This document shows positions 37,072 to 59,805 of a stretch of DNA of 64,000 bases, one piece after another. Every line of letters begins with the position of its first letter. The first letter of the stretch is position 1. This stretch comes from a bacterium (GTDB lineage: Bacteria > Patescibacteriota > Minisyncoccia > Phycocordibacterales > UBA6899), in assembly GCA_043743715.1 (NCBI GenBank), contig JAYTWK010000015.1, forward strand, positions 6,576-70,575, written 5' to 3'. The position numbers and the translations under genes are program-made. The notes beneath the pieces are model-generated. The model saw nothing but the letters and a program-made list of their open reading frames with translations, did no database searches and had not been told where the DNA came from.

Positions 37072-38013
37072 ATGCACCCGATATCTGTGAAAGGACTGCT
37101 GTCGGTGTATCTATTTCTGCCTCTCGTCCTACTGTTCATATTCTGCGACCACTTCTTCTTCCATGGTGCAGGAAAGCATATCCTACCGCGTCACCCGGAG
37201 ACACTGCTTTGGTACACACTCCTATTTAATCTGCCGCATATCTTCACCAGCTTCTTCAGCTTCGCCGACAGGGAATATCTCGCATTCTATAAATGGCAGC
37301 TTCTCATCGGGCTTCCGCTCATCACGCTCCTTGCATTTCTTCTTCCGTCATTTGACCTCATCTCGACCGTATTCATGCTCGTCCTCTACACGCTGTACCA
37401 CAATGTGTCGCAGCAGACCGGCGTCACAATGTCGCTGATGCGTTATAAGAGTCTCGCAGTAGAGGCATGGCGATGGGTGAATATTGTCCTTGGGCTCTAT
37501 TTATATTTTCTTATCTATCCTCCCGTCGCAATACCGATACTGCAGATATATGCGACACCTATACTTCTCATGCTGTTTACGGCATCACTCTTCCTCACGC
37601 TTTCATTTCTGCGCCACAGCAAGACAATGGAAGGAAAACTCTATGCGCTCGGGACCGCCGGCATTGCAGGCATCGGCATCATCTCATTCTTCACCGGCTA
37701 TCCGTTCTTCATCGCGACGTCACTGCGCGTCGTTCACGACATCACTGCATTCATCTTCTATATCACTCATGACATGAACCGCAATCGCGAGCGCATGTAT
37801 AATTTTATTTACGCTGCGCTCCTTCCGAGCACAAAGCTCTTTATTGTCGGCATCCCACTGTATGCGATATTTTTTACATTCATCGCACAACAGGGCGGCC
37901 CTAGCCTGGTACTTCAGGCATTCTTTCTCATCTCGGTGACACATTTCTATATCGAGGGTTTCATGTGGAAAAACGGCTCTATCCATAGGCGTGAAATAGC
38001 TTTTCAGTTCTGA
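37072..38013 (+). CDS. Polytopic integral membrane protein, hypothetical
   Basis: Roughly 8 hydrophobic helices. No family assignment. Confidence 0.45.
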   Translation: MHPISVKGLLSVYLFLPLVLLFIFCDHFFFHGAGKHILPRHPETLLWYTLLFNLPHIFTSFFSFADREYLAFYKWQLLIGLPLITLLAFLLPSFDLISTVFMLVLYTLYHNVSQQTGVTMSLMRYKSLAVEAWRWVNIVLGLYLYFLIYPPVAIPILQIYATPILLMLFTASLFLTLSFLRHSKTMEGKLYALGTAGIAGIGIISFFTGYPFFIATSLRVVHDITAFIFYITHDMNRNRERMYNFIYAALLPSTKLFIVGIPLYAIFFTFIAQQGGPSLVLQAFFLISVTHFYIEGFMWKNGSIHRREIAFQF

Positions 38014-38049
38014 CTTTGAGGTATTCTTGTATTTTTTTACGTCTTCGCT

Positions 38050-38530
38050 ATACTCATAAGACCTAGGGATTTGGATGAAATACGAGGCAGGGAGAAAGCG
38101 ACGAGGAAGACATATTCCTATATGTTGACCGAGTTGCAGAGGCTCCCTAACAAAGTAGTTCGCCAAATACGTAGGTCTTACGCCTATGACCCGGCAAACA
38201 CCGGAGAGGGTGAGGGAAGAACACCTGATACGTTTCGGGTTAGTAGAGCTCTCCGGAACTGCTCCGACAAGCAGATAATCAAGTTAGCATGCTCTTTAAA
38301 AAACCTATACCCATCTAATCCAAAAATTTCGACTACGACTTTTTGAAAAATGTTCGACATATCTTGATAAGACTCACATTTTTCAATTCGTCTCGTCAGA
38401 AATTTTAGAATTATCTAGGTAAGAGTTTTTTAAGAACATACTTAAACCAGGGTGGCACCGCGACGAAGGAATATTTCCTAGACGCCCCTGCGAATTTATT
38501 CACATGAATGAATTTGGAGGGGCGTTTTTG
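38050..38530 (+). promoter_or_regulatory. T-box riboswitch leader for aspS: stem-I-like hairpin with a GAC (Asp) specifier, a canonical T-box sequence and a terminator
   Basis: AACCAGGGTGGCACCGCG at 38445-38462 matches the T-box consensus AAUUAGGGUGGNACCGCG. The variable N is C, which fits discriminator G73 of tRNA-Asp. Terminator hairpin gacgcccct...aggggcg plus a T-run at 38481-38530. Upstream extended hairpin at 38050-38167 has a GAC in an internal loop. Confidence 0.75.
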
Positions 38531-38560
38531 TTACCCAAATACAAGTTAAATATAAAAGAT

Positions 38561-39952
38561 ATGACAAGAACACACATTAAAGATCTGAAGGCGCATATCG
38601 GCGAAGAAGTAACTCTCAAGGGTTGGGTCGATATCCGCCGCGACCAGGGTAAACTCATCTTCATCGACTTCCGTGACATGACAGGCAAGGTGCAGATGGT
38701 CGCGCTACCAATGCACAAAGAGGCCATAGAAGCGGCGAATACCGTACGCCCCGAGTGGGTACTCGAAGTGCAGGGCAAAGTGAATGCTCGCCCAGAGAAG
38801 AATGTGAAAGCGGACGAAGAGAACGGCTCACTCGAAATAGAAGTGCTCGGAATTTCCGTACTTAGCAAAGCGGAGACGCCGCCCCTTGATGTGCGCAGCG
38901 ACGGTATGGAAATAGGTGAAGACGTACGCCTCAAGTACCGCTACCTCGACCTGCGTCGTCCGCGTATGCAGAAGAATATTCGCATGCGACACGACATCGA
39001 ACTCTTCGTACGCAACTTCCTCTCAAATGAAATGTTCACCGAGATAGAGACTCCGCTCTTGTCGAAGTCGACACCTGAAGGATCACGTGATTACTTGGTA
39101 CCAAGCCGTCTTGAGCAAGGCAAGTTCTATGCGCTGCCACAGTCTCCGCAGCAGTATAAGCAGCTGCTGATGGTCGCGGGGTTCGAGCGTTACTTCCAGT
39201 TTGCTCGCTGCATGCGCGACGAGGACACTCGCGGTGATCGTCAACCGGAATTCACCCAACTTGATATGGAAATGAGTTTTGTGGAGAGGGAAGATGTCAT
39301 GGCGCAGAATGAGAAACTGCTGATAGAGCTGGTTCAGAAAGTCGCTCCACATAAAAAGATCCAGCAGATTCCTTTCCCGCGCATGACCTACGCCGAGGCG
39401 ATGGAGAAACACGGAAACGACAAACCCGATATTCGCACCGACAAGAATGATTCTGACCTCTTGGCATTCTGCTGGGTAATTGATTTTCCGTTTTTCGAGA
39501 AAACCGATAAGGGCGGCTGGACCTTTACCCACAATCCTTTTTCTGCCGCAAAACCCGAGCACACTGACATGCTGATGAACAAAGAAAAGATTGGTGATAT
39601 TCTCACTACTCAGTACGATGTAGCGCTGAACGGTTTCGAAATTGGTGGCGGAAGCATCCGCAACCACACACCAGAGGGACTCACCAAGGTATTCGAGATT
39701 ATGGGTCACACTTCTGAAAGTATTAGTGCAAACTTCGGGCACATGCTCGAAGCATTCTCATATGGAGCGCCTCCGCACGGCGGTATTGCCTGGGGACTCG
39801 ACCGCTTGATTGCCATACTACAGAATGAGCCGAATATCCGCGAGGTCATCGCATTTGCCAAGACCGGCGAAGGCAAGGACCTGATGATGGCCGCCCCTTC
39901 GGAAGCATCAGCAGAGCAATTGGTTGAACTCGGCCTGCGAATCGTAAAATAA
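38561..39952 (+). CDS. aspS: Aspartyl-tRNA synthetase (short, archaeal/eukaryal-type). The tracked ORF start at 38504 lies inside the T-box terminator, so the start was reassigned to the ATG at 38561
   Basis: OB-fold N-domain. Class II motifs (FYALPQSPQQYKQLLMV..FERYFQFARCMRDED...QLDMEMSF; GGGSIRNH). Confidence 0.85.
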   Translation: MTRTHIKDLKAHIGEEVTLKGWVDIRRDQGKLIFIDFRDMTGKVQMVALPMHKEAIEAANTVRPEWVLEVQGKVNARPEKNVKADEENGSLEIEVLGISVLSKAETPPLDVRSDGMEIGEDVRLKYRYLDLRRPRMQKNIRMRHDIELFVRNFLSNEMFTEIETPLLSKSTPEGSRDYLVPSRLEQGKFYALPQSPQQYKQLLMVAGFERYFQFARCMRDEDTRGDRQPEFTQLDMEMSFVEREDVMAQNEKLLIELVQKVAPHKKIQQIPFPRMTYAEAMEKHGNDKPDIRTDKNDSDLLAFCWVIDFPFFEKTDKGGWTFTHNPFSAAKPEHTDMLMNKEKIGDILTTQYDVALNGFEIGGGSIRNHTPEGLTKVFEIMGHTSESISANFGHMLEAFSYGAPPHGGIAWGLDRLIAILQNEPNIREVIAFAKTGEGKDLMMAAPSEASAEQLVELGLRIVK

Positions 39953-42926: not shown

Positions 42927-43982
42927 ATGATCACCGATGTACTCAAGATACTCATCCCGTCAGCGGTGGCATTCTTCATCGGCATCCTCATCACTCCGAC
43001 CGTTACAGACTTTCTCTACAAACATAAGATGTGGAAGAAATCGAGTGTGAAGCTGGCGATGGATGGACAAGCGGCAACTATTTCCTCGAAACTGCATAAC
43101 GATGAAGAGCGCAAGACCCCGCGCATGGGCGGCATCATCGTCTGGGGGAGTATCGCTCTTACGACAACGCTCTTTTGGGTGATAGCGCATCTGTTTCCGA
43201 CCACTGAAACAGCAAAACTGAATTTCTTTTCGCGCAATCAGACATGGCTACCGTTTTTCATACTTCTCGCAGGAGCCACATGCGGACTCATCGACGACTA
43301 TCTCGTCTGCAACGACAAGGGCACATACAAAGGCGGAGGCCTTTCGCTCAAGACACGCATACTATTTGTCTCTCTCCTTGGTGCGCTCGGTGCATGGTGG
43401 TTCTACGGGAAACTCGGTGTTGACTACGTGCACATACCGTTCTGGGGTGATCTGCATCTTAGACTCCTCTTTATTCCCGTGTTCATCGTCTTTGTCATCG
43501 GCATCTACTCGGGCGGTATTATCGACGGCGTCGACGGACTTTCAGGCGGCGTATTCGCGATCATTTATGCCGCATACGCGGTCATCGCATTCGCCGGCGG
43601 ACAGATCGATCTTGCGGCGTACTCGGCGGTAGTCGTCGGCGGACTCTTGGCGTTCTTGTGGTTCAACATTCCGCCTGCGCGCTTCTTTAATTCCGAGACC
43701 GGTACCATGGCGCTCACCACCTCACTCGTCATTGTCGCATTCCTTACCAAGGCTGTGGTGCCGCTTCTTATCATCGGATTTCTTCTCATTGCGACCAGCG
43801 CATCGAGCATCATCCAGATACTCTCGAAGAAATATCGAGGAGGGAAGAAAGTCTTTATTGTCGCCCCCTTACACAATCACTTCCAAGCGCTCGGCTGGCC
43901 AAGCTATAAAGTGACTATGCGCTACTGGGTCATCGGCATGATGTTTGCGGTAATTGGCGTCATCGTCGCACTAATCGGGTAA
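42927..43982 (+). CDS. mraY: Phospho-N-acetylmuramoyl-pentapeptide transferase MraY (the tracked start at 42876 would translate the upstream TACTAC repeat)
   Basis: MraY motifs (..MGGIIVWGS.., GIIDGVDGLSGG, ..LIIGFLLI..). Confidence 0.85.
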   Translation: MITDVLKILIPSAVAFFIGILITPTVTDFLYKHKMWKKSSVKLAMDGQAATISSKLHNDEERKTPRMGGIIVWGSIALTTTLFWVIAHLFPTTETAKLNFFSRNQTWLPFFILLAGATCGLIDDYLVCNDKGTYKGGGLSLKTRILFVSLLGALGAWWFYGKLGVDYVHIPFWGDLHLRLLFIPVFIVFVIGIYSGGIIDGVDGLSGGVFAIIYAAYAVIAFAGGQIDLAAYSAVVVGGLLAFLWFNIPPARFFNSETGTMALTTSLVIVAFLTKAVVPLLIIGFLLIATSASSIIQILSKKYRGGKKVFIVAPLHNHFQALGWPSYKVTMRYWVIGMMFAVIGVIVALIG

Positions 43983-44232
43983 CGAGTAATTTTAGCGATC
44001 TGCTTCGTCGCGCGCGCCGAAAACCCCTCCAAAATATATGAATACTCCTCAGGGGTATTCCGACTTCGCTTCTCGCATCTCATCTAAAATAACTTGTTAC
44101 CACCCGGTACAACCCAAAAAGTACTGCTTCGGCATCGCCTCAAATTTGCCTCAAAGCTAGCGCGCTTGCATTCGTCTGAACATTGGGCTCAGGAGCTTCC
44201 ATAAATCAGAAAGTTCGCTATAGTGAATCAAC

Positions 44233-48428: not shown

Positions 48429-49568
48429 TTGGGGACAGCGAAAGCTCGATTCTGGGCTATAATACAGACCATGCACAGTCGCGGCGGAGTCGACAGAGTT
48501 TTCTTGGCTATCATCGTTACTCTTATCTCTCTAGGAGTATTGGTGTTTATTTCCGCATCACTCGGCACGCTCTCAAGTAATACCTCGAAATTCACCAACC
48601 TCCTCATCAGCCAGCTCGGCTTCGGGCTTGTGCTTGGAAGCATAGCGATGTACGGTGCATCGCGTCTCAAATATCAGTTCTGGCGCAAGCACGCGTTCTG
48701 GATTTTCCTTATCTCAATTATTCTCTCGGTGCTAGTATTCATTCCTGGAATCGGCATGGAGCACGGGGGAGCACGGCGCTGGATAGACCTGCGAATCACT
48801 ACACTCCAGCCCGGAGAGTTCCTTAAGTTCGGAGTCATCGTCTATCTCGCCGCATGGTTCACCTTTATCAAGAAGCGAATTCACTCGCCGCTGTTTGGTA
48901 TCTATCCACTCATGGGCATGCTCGGTATCGCAGGAGGACTCCTCCTGGCGCAACCTGATACCGGAACTTTCCTCATCGCGGTCGCAGCCGGAGCGGCAAT
49001 GTATATTGCAGCCGGAGCACGCTGGCGCGATATATTTATATTATTTCTACTCGGAATAGTCGTCGTCGGCGCTGTCGCGGTATGGAAACCGTATGTGCGG
49101 GCGCGCATTGTCACACTCATCCATCACAGCGACTTTCAAGGATCGGGCTACCAGCTCAAGCAGTCACTTATCGCCATTGGTAACGGCGGAGTATTCGGAA
49201 AGGGGTTAGGGCAGAGCGTACAAAAATTTAATTATCTTCCGGAAGCACAGGGAGATTCTATCTTCGCAGTCTTAGGCGAAGAATTCGGCTTCGTCGGCTG
49301 CACGGTCATCGTCATGCTCTACGTGCTTTTTGCCCTACGTGGCCTATGGATAGCATCGAAAGCGCCCGATAAGTTCGGTGGACTACTCGCAGTAGGGCTT
49401 GTTATACTTATCACGGCACAGTCATTCATCAATATCGCCTCAATGCTTGCTATCGCCCCACTTACGGGCGTGCCACTCATCTTCATTAGTCAGGGTGGGA
49501 CCGCGTTATTACTTGCTATGGCTGAGGTAGGCATTTTACTTAATATATCCAGGTTTAGAAACACTTAA
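48429..49568 (+). CDS. ftsW: SEDS-family peptidoglycan glycosyltransferase FtsW/RodA (possible start at 48471)
   Basis: 10-TM SEDS topology. Sits in an ftsW-murG context. Confidence 0.8.
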   Translation: MGTAKARFWAIIQTMHSRGGVDRVFLAIIVTLISLGVLVFISASLGTLSSNTSKFTNLLISQLGFGLVLGSIAMYGASRLKYQFWRKHAFWIFLISIILSVLVFIPGIGMEHGGARRWIDLRITTLQPGEFLKFGVIVYLAAWFTFIKKRIHSPLFGIYPLMGMLGIAGGLLLAQPDTGTFLIAVAAGAAMYIAAGARWRDIFILFLLGIVVVGAVAVWKPYVRARIVTLIHHSDFQGSGYQLKQSLIAIGNGGVFGKGLGQSVQKFNYLPEAQGDSIFAVLGEEFGFVGCTVIVMLYVLFALRGLWIASKAPDKFGGLLAVGLVILITAQSFINIASMLAIAPLTGVPLIFISQGGTALLLAMAEVGILLNISRFRNT

Positions 49569-57561: not shown

Positions 57562-57683
57562 ATTTTACGCCTTATTTTCAGGTTTTCAGACCAATACCAT
57601 TTGTTTTCCACATTTGCATGCGCACTATCTCTAACGGGGTTGATTTTATCGCTCATATCTGTTACTCTCATGTGACGCTTCTT

Positions 57684-57810
57684 CAGAGAACCTGAGGAAA
57701 CGAATGAAATACGAGGCATGGAGAAAATGATGAGGAAAGCATATTCCTATATGTTGACCGAATCATAGAGGCTCCATAACGAAGTAGTTCGTCGTTTGCG
57801 CAGGTTCTCT
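57684..57810 (+). ncRNA. Second copy of the aspS-leader stem-I-like structured RNA core, upstream of rpmA, with no T-box antiterminator or terminator
   Basis: About 86-nt core that is roughly 85% identical to 38065-38150. Three helices covary between the two copies (see findings). Confidence 0.5.
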
Positions 57811-57838
57811 ACGGGTATACTACGAGTAATATAACAAT

Positions 57839-58380: not shown

Positions 58381-58943
58381 ATGTATATACATGTATATAC
58401 ATCGAATTTGTCTGGCAATCACAAATCCAATATGACATTTCTCAACGAGAAAGACTGTTGTGATTACGAAACCCAACCATTTACTAACTCCGCTGATAGG
58501 CAAAGTTAGTAAATATCACCCCACTGTCTTAACAAACCTCCAAGTCCACTCTGTTCCATATCCAAGCACAGCCCTTGGATATGCTTGATTAAGATTACTA
58601 TTTATTGAGCACTCCCCCCTCGCTAAAACCCTGTGCCAAAGAATCCTAGCAATGGTAAATTGACTGCTTCGATTACAACACGAAAATCTGTTTTTTGGAG
58701 GGTCTGACCCCTATTCCTCAGTTCTACGGCTTAACCACAAGCTGGAATGGTCAAATTAAGCCACGATTTTTGTATATTATGCCCCAAAATAAGACCACTC
58801 ACATCAATGAGTGGTCTTATAAAAACTTTCAGATTTAGATGCAATGCGAAGTCCTGGACGGAGGCTGTATTTGAGAAGCTGCACTAGAGTACTGCTTCCA
58901 AACCCGTCGAAGGAAGGACAAGCAGAGCGCCAAATGTGGAAGT

Positions 58944-59387
58944 TTACTCAGCTTCGATGATGACTTTGAACTTCGCAGTCTTCTCTCCCACCTTCGCATC
59001 AACCTCAAATTCTCCGAGCTGTTTGAGTGGCTTCTCAAGATCGATGTGTGCCGACTCGATTGCTGCGCCGATGGCCTTGCCGAGCGCCTCCGCGAGATCG
59101 TGCTGGGTGACGCCTGCATAGAGGTGACCCTCTTCGTTGGCTGCACGCTTGACGATGACAATCGTGTCAGAAACGCCGTCGAGCGCCTTCTGGAGCACAT
59201 CGTGCTGCTTCTTTGCCTCACTCTCACGCTTCTTGGCGAGCTCTGCGACGCGTCGAGCTGACGACTTGGTGACCATCTCTCCTAAGCTCCTGGCAATAAT
59301 GAAATTACGCGCATAGCCCGGAGCGACATCGACGATTTCATACTTCTTGCCGACGTTCTTCACATCGGAAGTTAAAATAACCTGCAT
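58944..59387 (-). CDS. rplI: 50S ribosomal protein L9
   Basis: MQVILTSDVKNVGKKYEIVDVAPGYARNFII... Confidence 0.9.
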   Translation of the reverse strand: MQVILTSDVKNVGKKYEIVDVAPGYARNFIIARSLGEMVTKSSARRVAELAKKRESEAKKQHDVLQKALDGVSDTIVIVKRAANEEGHLYAGVTQHDLAEALGKAIGAAIESAHIDLEKPLKQLGEFEVDAKVGEKTAKFKVIIEAE

Positions 59388-59805
59388 AACGTAATACGTA
59401 TTTAGTTCGTATAAGACATCCTTCGAAACACGAAAGTCGATATTCGGCGCATTGCTTCGTTATCGATTTCACAAGGTCTCGGAGCAGTAGTTTTATCTAC
59501 AGCCCACTTCGACACTTGCTCATCGATGCCTCGCACTGCATCCAAATCTCGACTTTCTTGAGACTTTCTTAGGTAAATGAGTATGACGAGTACCCAACTG
59601 CGTGAGGCCTAGTATACCTATATTATAGAAAATGGCAATACAATGCTGTTGAAAGCTAAGAAAAAGGGGCTCCTTTCGGGCCCCTGTGGTTGACTGTTGG
59701 ACTGACTTTTCCGTGCGTACCGATACGCCCCTCTTTCAAGGTGGCGACGGCAATAAATATACTAAGAAAAAGACCGCCTTGAGTCAAGCTGCCTTTTCTT
59801 TTGGT

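Follow-up and report, generated by a model that had tools for sequence, protein, structure and literature searches.

A truncated T-box riboswitch upstream of aspS

The window analysed here, that is, the whole 64,000-nucleotide (nt) stretch of contig JAYTWK010000015.1 to which all coordinates refer, derives from a bacterium of the Candidate Phyla Radiation (CPR)/Patescibacteria with a tiny genome, and the element described is found in the leader of its aspS gene, which encodes aspartyl-tRNA synthetase (AspRS). Positions 38183-38529 very probably form a T-box riboswitch of truncated architecture which controls aspS by transcription attenuation. It uses the known T-box mechanism in a new architectural form. 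The closest relatives of the AspRS, at 95% to 68% identity, are encoded in metagenome-assembled genomes labelled Candidatus Lloydbacteria, Paceibacterota and similar; the related loci, genomic or metagenomic, that were compared with the window are referred to by L numbers (L001, L015 and so on).

Between a membrane-protein gene and aspS, the intergenic region at 38014-38560 shows a high degree of structure, with a minimum free energy of -177.8 kcal/mol and a z-score of -8.0 relative to shuffled sequences. An initial annotation made from the sequence had proposed a T-box controlling aspS at this location, with a variable position C fitting a G73 tRNA and a terminator with five T residues downstream of the box, and had called for the antiterminator and terminator folds to be compared; these proposals were all borne out. 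The sequence AACCAGGGTGGCACCGCG was identified at 38445-38462, and AGGGUGGCACCGCG at 38449-38462 is an exact match to the canonical 14-mer AGGGUGGNACCGCG (as worded in PMC11297988) with C at N, for which shuffled sequences give an expectation of 0.00. The box is followed by two alternative folds:

38448-38490, + strand: antiterminator (fold of -12.8 kcal/mol; aligned here by the Rfam model, with high posterior probability, and by the family model described below)
38448-38452 with 38486-38490, + strand: antiterminator helix A1 (fold)
38453-38459, + strand: T-box bulge of 7 nt, UGGCACC (fold)
38460-38462 with 38483-38485, + strand: antiterminator helix A2 (fold; covaries among relatives)
38467-38479, + strand: antiterminator inner hairpin (fold)
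38482-38529, + strand: intrinsic terminator, stem 38482-38501 with 38506-38525, loop 38502-38505 and U-tract UUUUU at 38525-38529 (fold)

As the segment 38482-38490 (ACGCCCCUG) is common to the 3' strand of the antiterminator and to the terminator, the two folds are mutually exclusive, like those of a classical T-box. The terminator fold (segment 38444-38531) reaches -38.0 kcal/mol versus the -12.8 kcal/mol of the antiterminator, and double changes occur among relatives at 7 of its 17 stem pairs. It was overlooked by a consensus scan because of its long stem. The U-tract ends 32 nt 5' of the ATG at 38561, before which no Shine-Dalgarno-like sequence, as would be sequestered under translational control, is visible. 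The variable base of the bulge, C38456, is complementary to G73, the discriminator base carried by bacterial tRNA-Asn and tRNA-Asp; tRNA-Lys carries A73.

A second exact copy of the 14-mer (AGGGTGGGACCGCG) was found at 49492-49505, within ftsW (TIGR02614, 340 bits), where it encodes S-Q-G-G-T-A. It was considered as a His T-box, given that UGGG would fit C73, and was ruled out on account of its position inside ftsW, with murG as the next gene, and of the lack of any family-model match. This copy is a coding coincidence, and the 14-mer alone is thus no proof of a T-box.

The decoding module and Stem III

Upstream of the antiterminator lies a compact decoding module (38183-38283) made up of a K-turn, a Stem I of four base pairs (bp), a Stem II with S-turn and a IIA/B pseudoknot, and this is followed by an expanded Stem III:

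38183-38209, + strand: K-turn and ultrashort Stem I (family pattern CC-NNN-GA-N-[4 bp]-loop-[4 bp]-N-GA-GG)
38183-38184 (CC) with 38208-38209 (GG), + strand: K-turn C-stem (covaries: CG, UA, GC, AU)
38185-38187, + strand: predicted K-turn bulge UAU, with tandem GA at 38188-38189 and 38206-38207 (CC-UAU-GA-C...A-GA-GG)
38191-38194 with 38201-38204, + strand: Stem I helix (all four pairs covary)
38195-38200, + strand: terminal specifier loop CAAACA (family register)
38197-38199, + strand: specifier AAC (Asn), loop positions 3-5, with the conserved purine A38200 next
38212-38253, + strand: Stem II, lower helix 38212-38216 with 38249-38253 and a variable apical hairpin (double changes in all five lower pairs)
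38217-38221 (AAGAA) and 38242-38248 (AGUAGAG), + strand: Stem II S-turn/purine-string strands (GAAGAA and AGUAGA conserved in the family)
38254-38274, + strand: Stem IIA/B pseudoknot of 21 nt (covariation)
38254-38257 (CGGA) with 38263-38266 (UCCG), + strand: IIA (variable position covaries)
38264-38269, + strand: F-box-like CCGACA (sequence)
38259-38262 (CUGC) with 38271-38274 (GCAG), + strand: IIB (all four pairs covary)
38275-38283, + strand: linker AUAAUCAAG, ending in a conserved R-A-G (family consensus AAUNAAG)
38284-38446, + strand: expanded Stem III of ~160 nt, an AT-rich imperfect hairpin (folds end to end, -35.9 kcal/mol)

The K-turn, the S-turn and purine string of Stem II, the F-box-bearing IIA/B pseudoknot of 21 nt and the RAG linker are all known T-box parts, and the RAG or RRRxG-Stem III-AA motif has likewise been described in T-boxes (PMC7583486; PMC11297988). 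The distal Stem I platform that binds the tRNA elbow, consisting of an AG bulge and a distal loop, is absent from this leader, whose Stem I comprises 4 bp and a 6-nt loop. With 74 distal positions deleted in the Rfam alignment of L015, Stem I is truncated just above the K-turn helix, placing the specifier in the terminal loop.

The Stem III insert is absent from the 95%-identical relative L001, and in the window it splits the family-model match in two. Long inserts are present at the same site in L116 (~150 nt), L085 and L185, and comparison with L025 revealed an insert of ~200 nt within the terminator loop of L033. Those of the window, L116 and L033 are all AT-rich hairpin-formers situated at length-tolerant positions of conserved T-box leaders, and no similarity among them was detected by BLAST. 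A BLAST search with the window insert, covering the window and every locus, recovered nothing beyond the insert and its reverse complement, so a shared mobile element is not indicated. The insert is probably tolerated.

Related leaders and covariation

The element is one member of a larger family. Its identical core GGGUGGCACCGCG is found upstream of aspS in 12 of 80 related genomes, and a metagenome scan using the pattern GGTGGCACCGCG-N(3-33)-CGCCCCTGCRRA yielded at least 120 loci. Counting genomes and metagenomes of Paceibacteria, aspS is preceded by a homologous leader in over 120 cases, and nearly all of the scanned loci share one architecture; among species-representative genomes of the clade, the aspS T-box is present in 25 of 80. 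The leaders start a few bases past a -10-like box, directly at the short K-turn and Stem I. Their 5' part follows CC-NNN-GA-N-[4-bp stem]-C-N-(G/A)AC-A-[stem]-N-GA-GG and their middle part N-[5-bp helix]-AAGAA-[variable hairpin]-AGUAGAN-[5-bp helix], then CGN-..-[helix]-NCG-A..-[helix]. The 3' part consists of AAUNAAG, an optional hairpin and AAA(C/G)(C/U)AG-GGUGGCACCGCG.

A covariance model (R2) was built from 36 related leaders. Within the 64-kb window it matches only the aspS leader, once at the decoding module (38180-38291, 58.3 bits, E = 3e-12) and once at the discriminator region ending at 38490 (29.5 bits, E = 1.6e-5). For 46 leaders aligned with MAFFT, the share of paired cells is 95.5%, versus 88.1% in shuffled alignments (none of 500 as high) and 35-56% with slid partners; one Stem I pair in this alignment is represented by GC 22, AU 18 and CG 1 times. 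A model-based alignment of 92 distinct sequences, which being fitted to the model leans towards the structure, gave 93.0% paired versus 78.5% shuffled, with double changes at 22 of 28 pairs and slid controls at or below 50%. For pseudoknot IIA, formed by CGN past Stem II with the NCG of the F-box-like CCGAYA, the variable position is paired in 35 of 39 leaders (G:C 20, U:A 9, C:G 3, U.G 3; permutation 18.7 +/- 3.0, none of 5000 as high) in a register-fixed test, a more permissive version of which already gave 59% in the cross-control. Two CAG variants in IIA are matched by CUG.

At its gathering threshold the Rfam T-box model RF00230 reports no T-box in the window or in any of 17 related loci. 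On L015, a relative without the insertion, it aligns over its full length with 34.5 bits (E = 2.4e-6), still below the gathering score of 93; the K-turn, Stem II (GAAa/AAGUA), F-box (CCGUUA to CCGAAA) and T-box of the model map onto the family elements, and it is the distal Stem I positions that are deleted.

Among the relatives, some loci have only ~50 nt between K-turn and T-box upstream of aspS (L031, L037, L083, L092, L102, L115, L117, L121, L147, L150, L158, L177 and L179). If functional, these minimal relatives would count as very small T-boxes with neither Stem II nor the contact to the tRNA elbow. A second group of T-box leaders (L097, L100, L113, L135, L154, L160, L162, L165, L167 and L183) displays the same short GAC or AAC specifier hairpin before a long-form AspRS (~584-589 amino acids (aa); full length in L113, L135 and L167), and several of these leaders are located just 3' of a tRNA-like sequence. 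In this group the start codon has no evident terminator hairpin or U-tract ahead of it, and control may thus be translational. A small extra open reading frame (ORF) is located between an Asn-type T-box and aspS in L052, L060, L067, L070 and L075; examples are a ~200-aa protein beginning MKIIEHFPNLIQTLHYDCGATALL and an M..SIIIY.DKK(T/S)GIKLETHLENE ORF (88 aa in L060, 328 aa in L070).

The specifier codon

A strict parse of 125 unique leaders placed GAC at loop positions 3-5 in 74 and AAC in 18, the rest being mostly length or register variants that still hold GAC or AAC, plus a few mis-parses. In almost all of the 125, aspS is located no more than 1.5 kb downstream. AAC is the commoner triplet in the 25 element-bearing species-representative genomes, and near-identical leaders differing only at the triplet were found (CUGACA in L015, CCAACA in L025). 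The loop of the window and of the 95%-identical L001 is CAAACA.

The reading register is provided in part by another gene. The T-box ahead of a thrS gene (TIGR00418, 665 bits; L094:1519-3258, - strand) has a UGGA bulge, and its hairpin loop, UCACCAA, holds ACC in the same register of two bases, codon and A. With the register given by the GAC of CUGACA and the ACC of UCACCAA, CAAACA reads AAC (38197-38199) followed by A38200. The Asp (GAC) specifier in an internal loop which the initial annotation had assigned is consequently replaced by AAC (Asn) in the terminal loop of the 4-bp hairpin within the module at 38183-38283, and the match between specifier and aspS would hold through the tRNA-Asn route. 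The thrS T-box with its short specifier hairpin also means that the architecture is not confined to aspS in these organisms. Contigs bearing both a thrS and an aspS T-box are L094, L108 and L172.

The aspS gene and its product

The gene downstream of the leader is as follows:

38561-39952, + strand: aspS, 463-aa bacterial-type AspRS (TIGR00459, 573.8 bits in two stretches; PDB 1efw, 480 bits in two stretches)

The ORF had been tracked from an ATG at 38504. That codon is situated in the terminator loop, and in 80 of 80 AspRS homologues the alignment begins at residues 1-3 of the product of ATG 38561, which establishes 38561 as the real aspS start, as had been suspected. The gene is also of the short form that had been noted, its product lacking the ~120-residue insertion (GAD) domain (463 aa vs about 590 aa).

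Comparison with PDB structures did not separate discriminating from non-discriminating AspRS, and no AsnRS or LysRS paralogue was found within the 64-kb window. A T-box cannot tell Asp-tRNA-Asn from Asn-tRNA-Asn, so an Asn specifier before aspS is sensible if AspRS also charges tRNA-Asn. With tRNA-Asn as the sensed tRNA, the enzyme is probably non-discriminating, also charging tRNA-Asn, with GatCAB completing the formation of Asn-tRNA-Asn. The other aminoacyl-tRNA synthetase genes of the window, alaS, trpS, gltX and cysS, were named by their N-terminal sequences (trpS also by NCBIfam), and the family model found no T-box before any of these four.

The leader is patchy among close relatives, being missing from L002-L008. 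In L002, L004 and L006 the same upstream membrane-protein gene (C-terminal ..FMWKNGS..; compare window 37072-38560) is separated from aspS by ~25-110 nt with no leader, and in L003, L005, L007 and L008, where the leader is absent too, the upstream genes are different. As its presence differs among close relatives, the ~550-nt leader, comprising the T-box and the module described below, has been gained or lost between close lineages.

Proposed mechanism

Sequence and covariation show the individual parts of the leader (K-turn, 4-bp Stem I with AAC then A in its loop, Stem II with its S-turn, and the 21-nt IIA/B pseudoknot) as well as its two competing folds. By homology with the actinobacterial ileS T-boxes, the anticodon GUU of tRNA-Asn would pair with AAC and the duplex would be clamped by the purines of Stem II. 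Beyond the long Stem III, the UGGC bulge would then pair with the 3' end GCCA (including G73) of an uncharged tRNA, stabilising the weak antiterminator (-12.8 kcal/mol) and allowing RNA polymerase to read on into aspS. A charged tRNA, again judging from known T-boxes, would be unable to dock, in which case the terminator (-38.0 kcal/mol) with its U5 tract would form and transcription would be expected to stop at 38525-38529, 32 nt before the ATG at 38561.

Upstream elements and a repeated 143-nt module

Upstream of the T-box, the leader contains promoter-like boxes and a structured module which is repeated in the window and in relatives:

38027-38054, + strand: promoter-like boxes, TTGTAT at 38027-38032, a 16-nt spacer and TATACT at 38049-38054 (read from sequence)
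38045-38187, + strand: multi-copy structured module, ~143 nt (model R1, 155 bits)
57674-57816, + strand: module copy (151 bits), 23 nt before the rpmA start
59424-59570, - strand: module copy (47.9 bits), before rplI
43971-44113, - strand: module copy (42.2 bits)
58811-58951, + strand: module copy (25.3 bits)
L001 1-140; L005 5325-5467 (between scpA and scpB); L157 7648-7789, - strand: module copies in relatives (BLAST and R1)

The boxes at 38027-38054 are a putative start of the leader transcript, whose first base is predicted to lie near 38060; a consensus promoter scan of the window returned no sigma-70 site. The sequence TATACTCAT upstream of the module is also present in L001 and L005. 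The model R1 was built from four module copies, and the module is found five times in the 64 kb. Its hairpin (~38060-38178) folds at -54.2 kcal/mol and includes GAC triplets, its conserved core reads GGAUGAnAUnCGAGGC ... GAGGAAGACAUAUUCCUAUAUGUUGACCGA ... AACnAAGnAGnnCGCC, and the four strongest copies show compensatory changes at 22 of 44 pairs. Strong copies follow closely on a TATACTCAT-like box and lie immediately ahead of rpmA, rplI, scpB or the aspS T-box, and two weaker ones are antisense to the flanking genes. No Rfam family matched the module, and among the relatives only Lloydbacteria-like ones showed it. It may represent either a new leader RNA or a repeat of the REP/MITE type. It is separate from the T-box and is not its Stem I.

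Alternative explanations

The hairpin of this module is what the initial annotation had taken, at 38050-38167, for a canonical long Stem I with an internal-loop GAC (Asp) and a basal K-turn, sensing tRNA-Asp. The hairpin itself stands: it is real and stable, lies within the same leader, has a GAUGA-like box and carries GAC triplets that are kept in L001, GAC being also the triplet used by most relatives of the aspS T-box. Its role as Stem I is highly improbable, however, as it stands alone before rpmA, rplI and scpB with no T-box, and is missing from the more than 120 related leaders, which begin at the short K-turn and Stem I. It also has neither the AG bulge nor the distal loop of such a stem, and is separated from the T-box by ~280 nt in which a complete decoding module is found.

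A number of points weigh against the reading of 38183-38529 as an Asn-specific T-box. The evidence for it is entirely computational, consisting of sequence comparison, folds and covariation. The RF00230 scan with Infernal that had been suggested for this locus failed to reach the gathering score of 93, giving in the window, at an E-value threshold, 17.7 bits (E = 0.15) with confident alignment only of the T-box and antiterminator. The pair closing helix A2 beside A1 is G-C (G38460-C38485) in the window, where a conserved G-U steric sensor has been described in T-boxes (PMC7583486); this G-C is not generalised to the family, as the metagenome search pattern fixed CGCCCC. ARAGORN found no tRNA-Asp or tRNA-Asn genes, from which the anticodon and G73 could be read, in the window and 200 related loci. 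Finally, the 160-nt Stem III insert could impair T-box function, and CAAACA also holds AAA (Lys), one position off register.

The last two points each lead to an alternative in their own right. The T-box may be real and CAAACA be read as AAA, or ambiguously as AAA/AAC, with a response to tRNA-Lys or to tRNA-Lys and tRNA-Asn together. Precedents for ambiguous or dual-codon T-boxes, namely a B. cereus lysK AAA box responding to tRNA-Asn and a two-codon box of C. acetobutylicum, are cited in PMC4574755. The two triplets do overlap in the loop, and the UGGU bulges of some relatives with ..AAACA loops would fit A73. We consider a Lys response unlikely all the same: the register places the codon at loop positions 3-5, that is AAC and then the purine A, AAA is missing from loops such as CCAACA and CUAACA, the bulge base C pairs with G73 and not with the A73 of tRNA-Lys, and the regulated gene is aspS rather than lysS. 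The leader could also be a decaying, non-functional remnant disabled by the Stem III insert, with aspS expressed constitutively or from another promoter. This would agree with the absence of the insert in the 95%-identical L001, with a leader lost from or never present in L002-L008, and with its patchy occurrence (25 of 80 genomes). Yet the K-turn, specifier loop, S-turn, pseudoknot, RAG linker, 14-mer and terminator are all intact, the insert is a closed hairpin placed exactly at the variable Stem III, where other members also have long inserts, and an intact terminator with no working antiterminator would silence an essential gene, all of which makes decay improbable.

Implications and comparison with known T-boxes

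To our knowledge, almost nothing is known of gene regulation in the Candidate Phyla Radiation, to which a functional T-box at this locus would extend the tRNA-sensing riboswitches. It would also mean that decoding by a truncated Stem I is tied neither to translational control nor to Actinobacteria, and the alternation of the specifier between Asp and Asn would serve as a sequence-level clue that AspRS serves tRNA-Asn here. For the locus itself, the start codon of aspS and the assigned specifier are corrected, and a blind spot of RF00230 is exposed. As a joint proposal, advanced tentatively and with a good deal more doubt than the riboswitch itself, Paceibacteria may hold an uncatalogued T-box class missed by Rfam- and TBDB-style models. 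Such a class would combine the ultrashort Stem I decoding module of Actinobacteria with an intrinsic terminator, would be near-exclusive to aspS, and would switch between GAC and AAC by single transitions among close relatives, implying a non-discriminating AspRS tuned to tRNA-Asn charging in these reduced genomes; some of its members would apparently lack Stem II and the pseudoknot. If this is true, the Stem II-less members would be smaller than any other natural T-box, and would contradict the idea that a truncated Stem I makes Stem II indispensable.

T-boxes have been tabulated for Firmicutes, Actinobacteria, Chloroflexi, Deinococcus-Thermus and two Proteobacteria (PMC2494555). The initial annotation had viewed the present T-box as informative for phylogeny; some value may be granted to it, but a weak one, given that T-boxes were already known beyond Firmicutes and that this box occurs in only 25 of the 80 clade genomes. 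In the literature collection searched, no publication was found linking T-boxes to CPR/Patescibacteria, which is not proof of novelty.

The nearest known architecture is that of the ultrashort-Stem-I ileS T-boxes of M. tuberculosis and N. farcinica, class II of TBDB (Sherwood et al., 2015, via PMC7778990; PMC7583486; PMC11297988). Translational control has been described for these, and the TBDB search for them was confined to Actinobacteria (PMC7778990; PMC7583486). In both systems Stem I is cut above the specifier and the tRNA-elbow platform is missing, and both have the basal K-turn, the S-turn and purine string of Stem II, a IIA/B pseudoknot that is compact (21 nt) and holds an F-box-like CCGNNA, the RAG linker, Stem III and a T-box bulge UGGN. 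With its truncated Stem I and the specifier at the tip, the aspS leader has the class II architecture, and a dependence on Stem II would be expected by analogy (PMC7583486). The two differ in their output, an intrinsic terminator here and Shine-Dalgarno sequestration there, and in the specifier, which is Asn/Asp before aspS in a CPR/Patescibacteria host as opposed to Ile. Stem III, moreover, is often absent in the aspS relatives and is ~160 nt in the window, and the A2 closing pair is G-C here and G-U there.

With the class I T-boxes of Firmicutes (B. subtilis tyrS and glyQS; RF00230), the element shares the 14-nt T-box and the competition of an antiterminator, which has a bulge of 7 nt, against a terminator and U-tract. 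The K-turn, a specifier followed by a purine and a preference for C at codon position 3 are also common to both, as are Stem II and the pseudoknot (as in tyrS) and the control of an aminoacyl-tRNA synthetase gene. Unlike class I, it lacks ~74 distal Stem I consensus positions, including the AG bulge and distal loop, its specifier is located in a terminal rather than an internal loop, and RF00230 scores range from 17.7 to 34.5 bits against the gathering score of 93.

A further parallel is the Asn-responsive T-box of C. acetobutylicum, which Saad et al. (2012, 2013) reportedly linked to tRNA-dependent asparagine formation and which is said to have a long canonical Stem I and to precede an operon with gatCAB and asnB. 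The logic is the same, in that an AAC specifier governs an AspRS that must charge tRNA-Asn. The settings differ, with an operon in Firmicutes on the one side and, on the other, a single aspS gene whose AspRS is putatively non-discriminating, preceded by a leader with a truncated Stem I.

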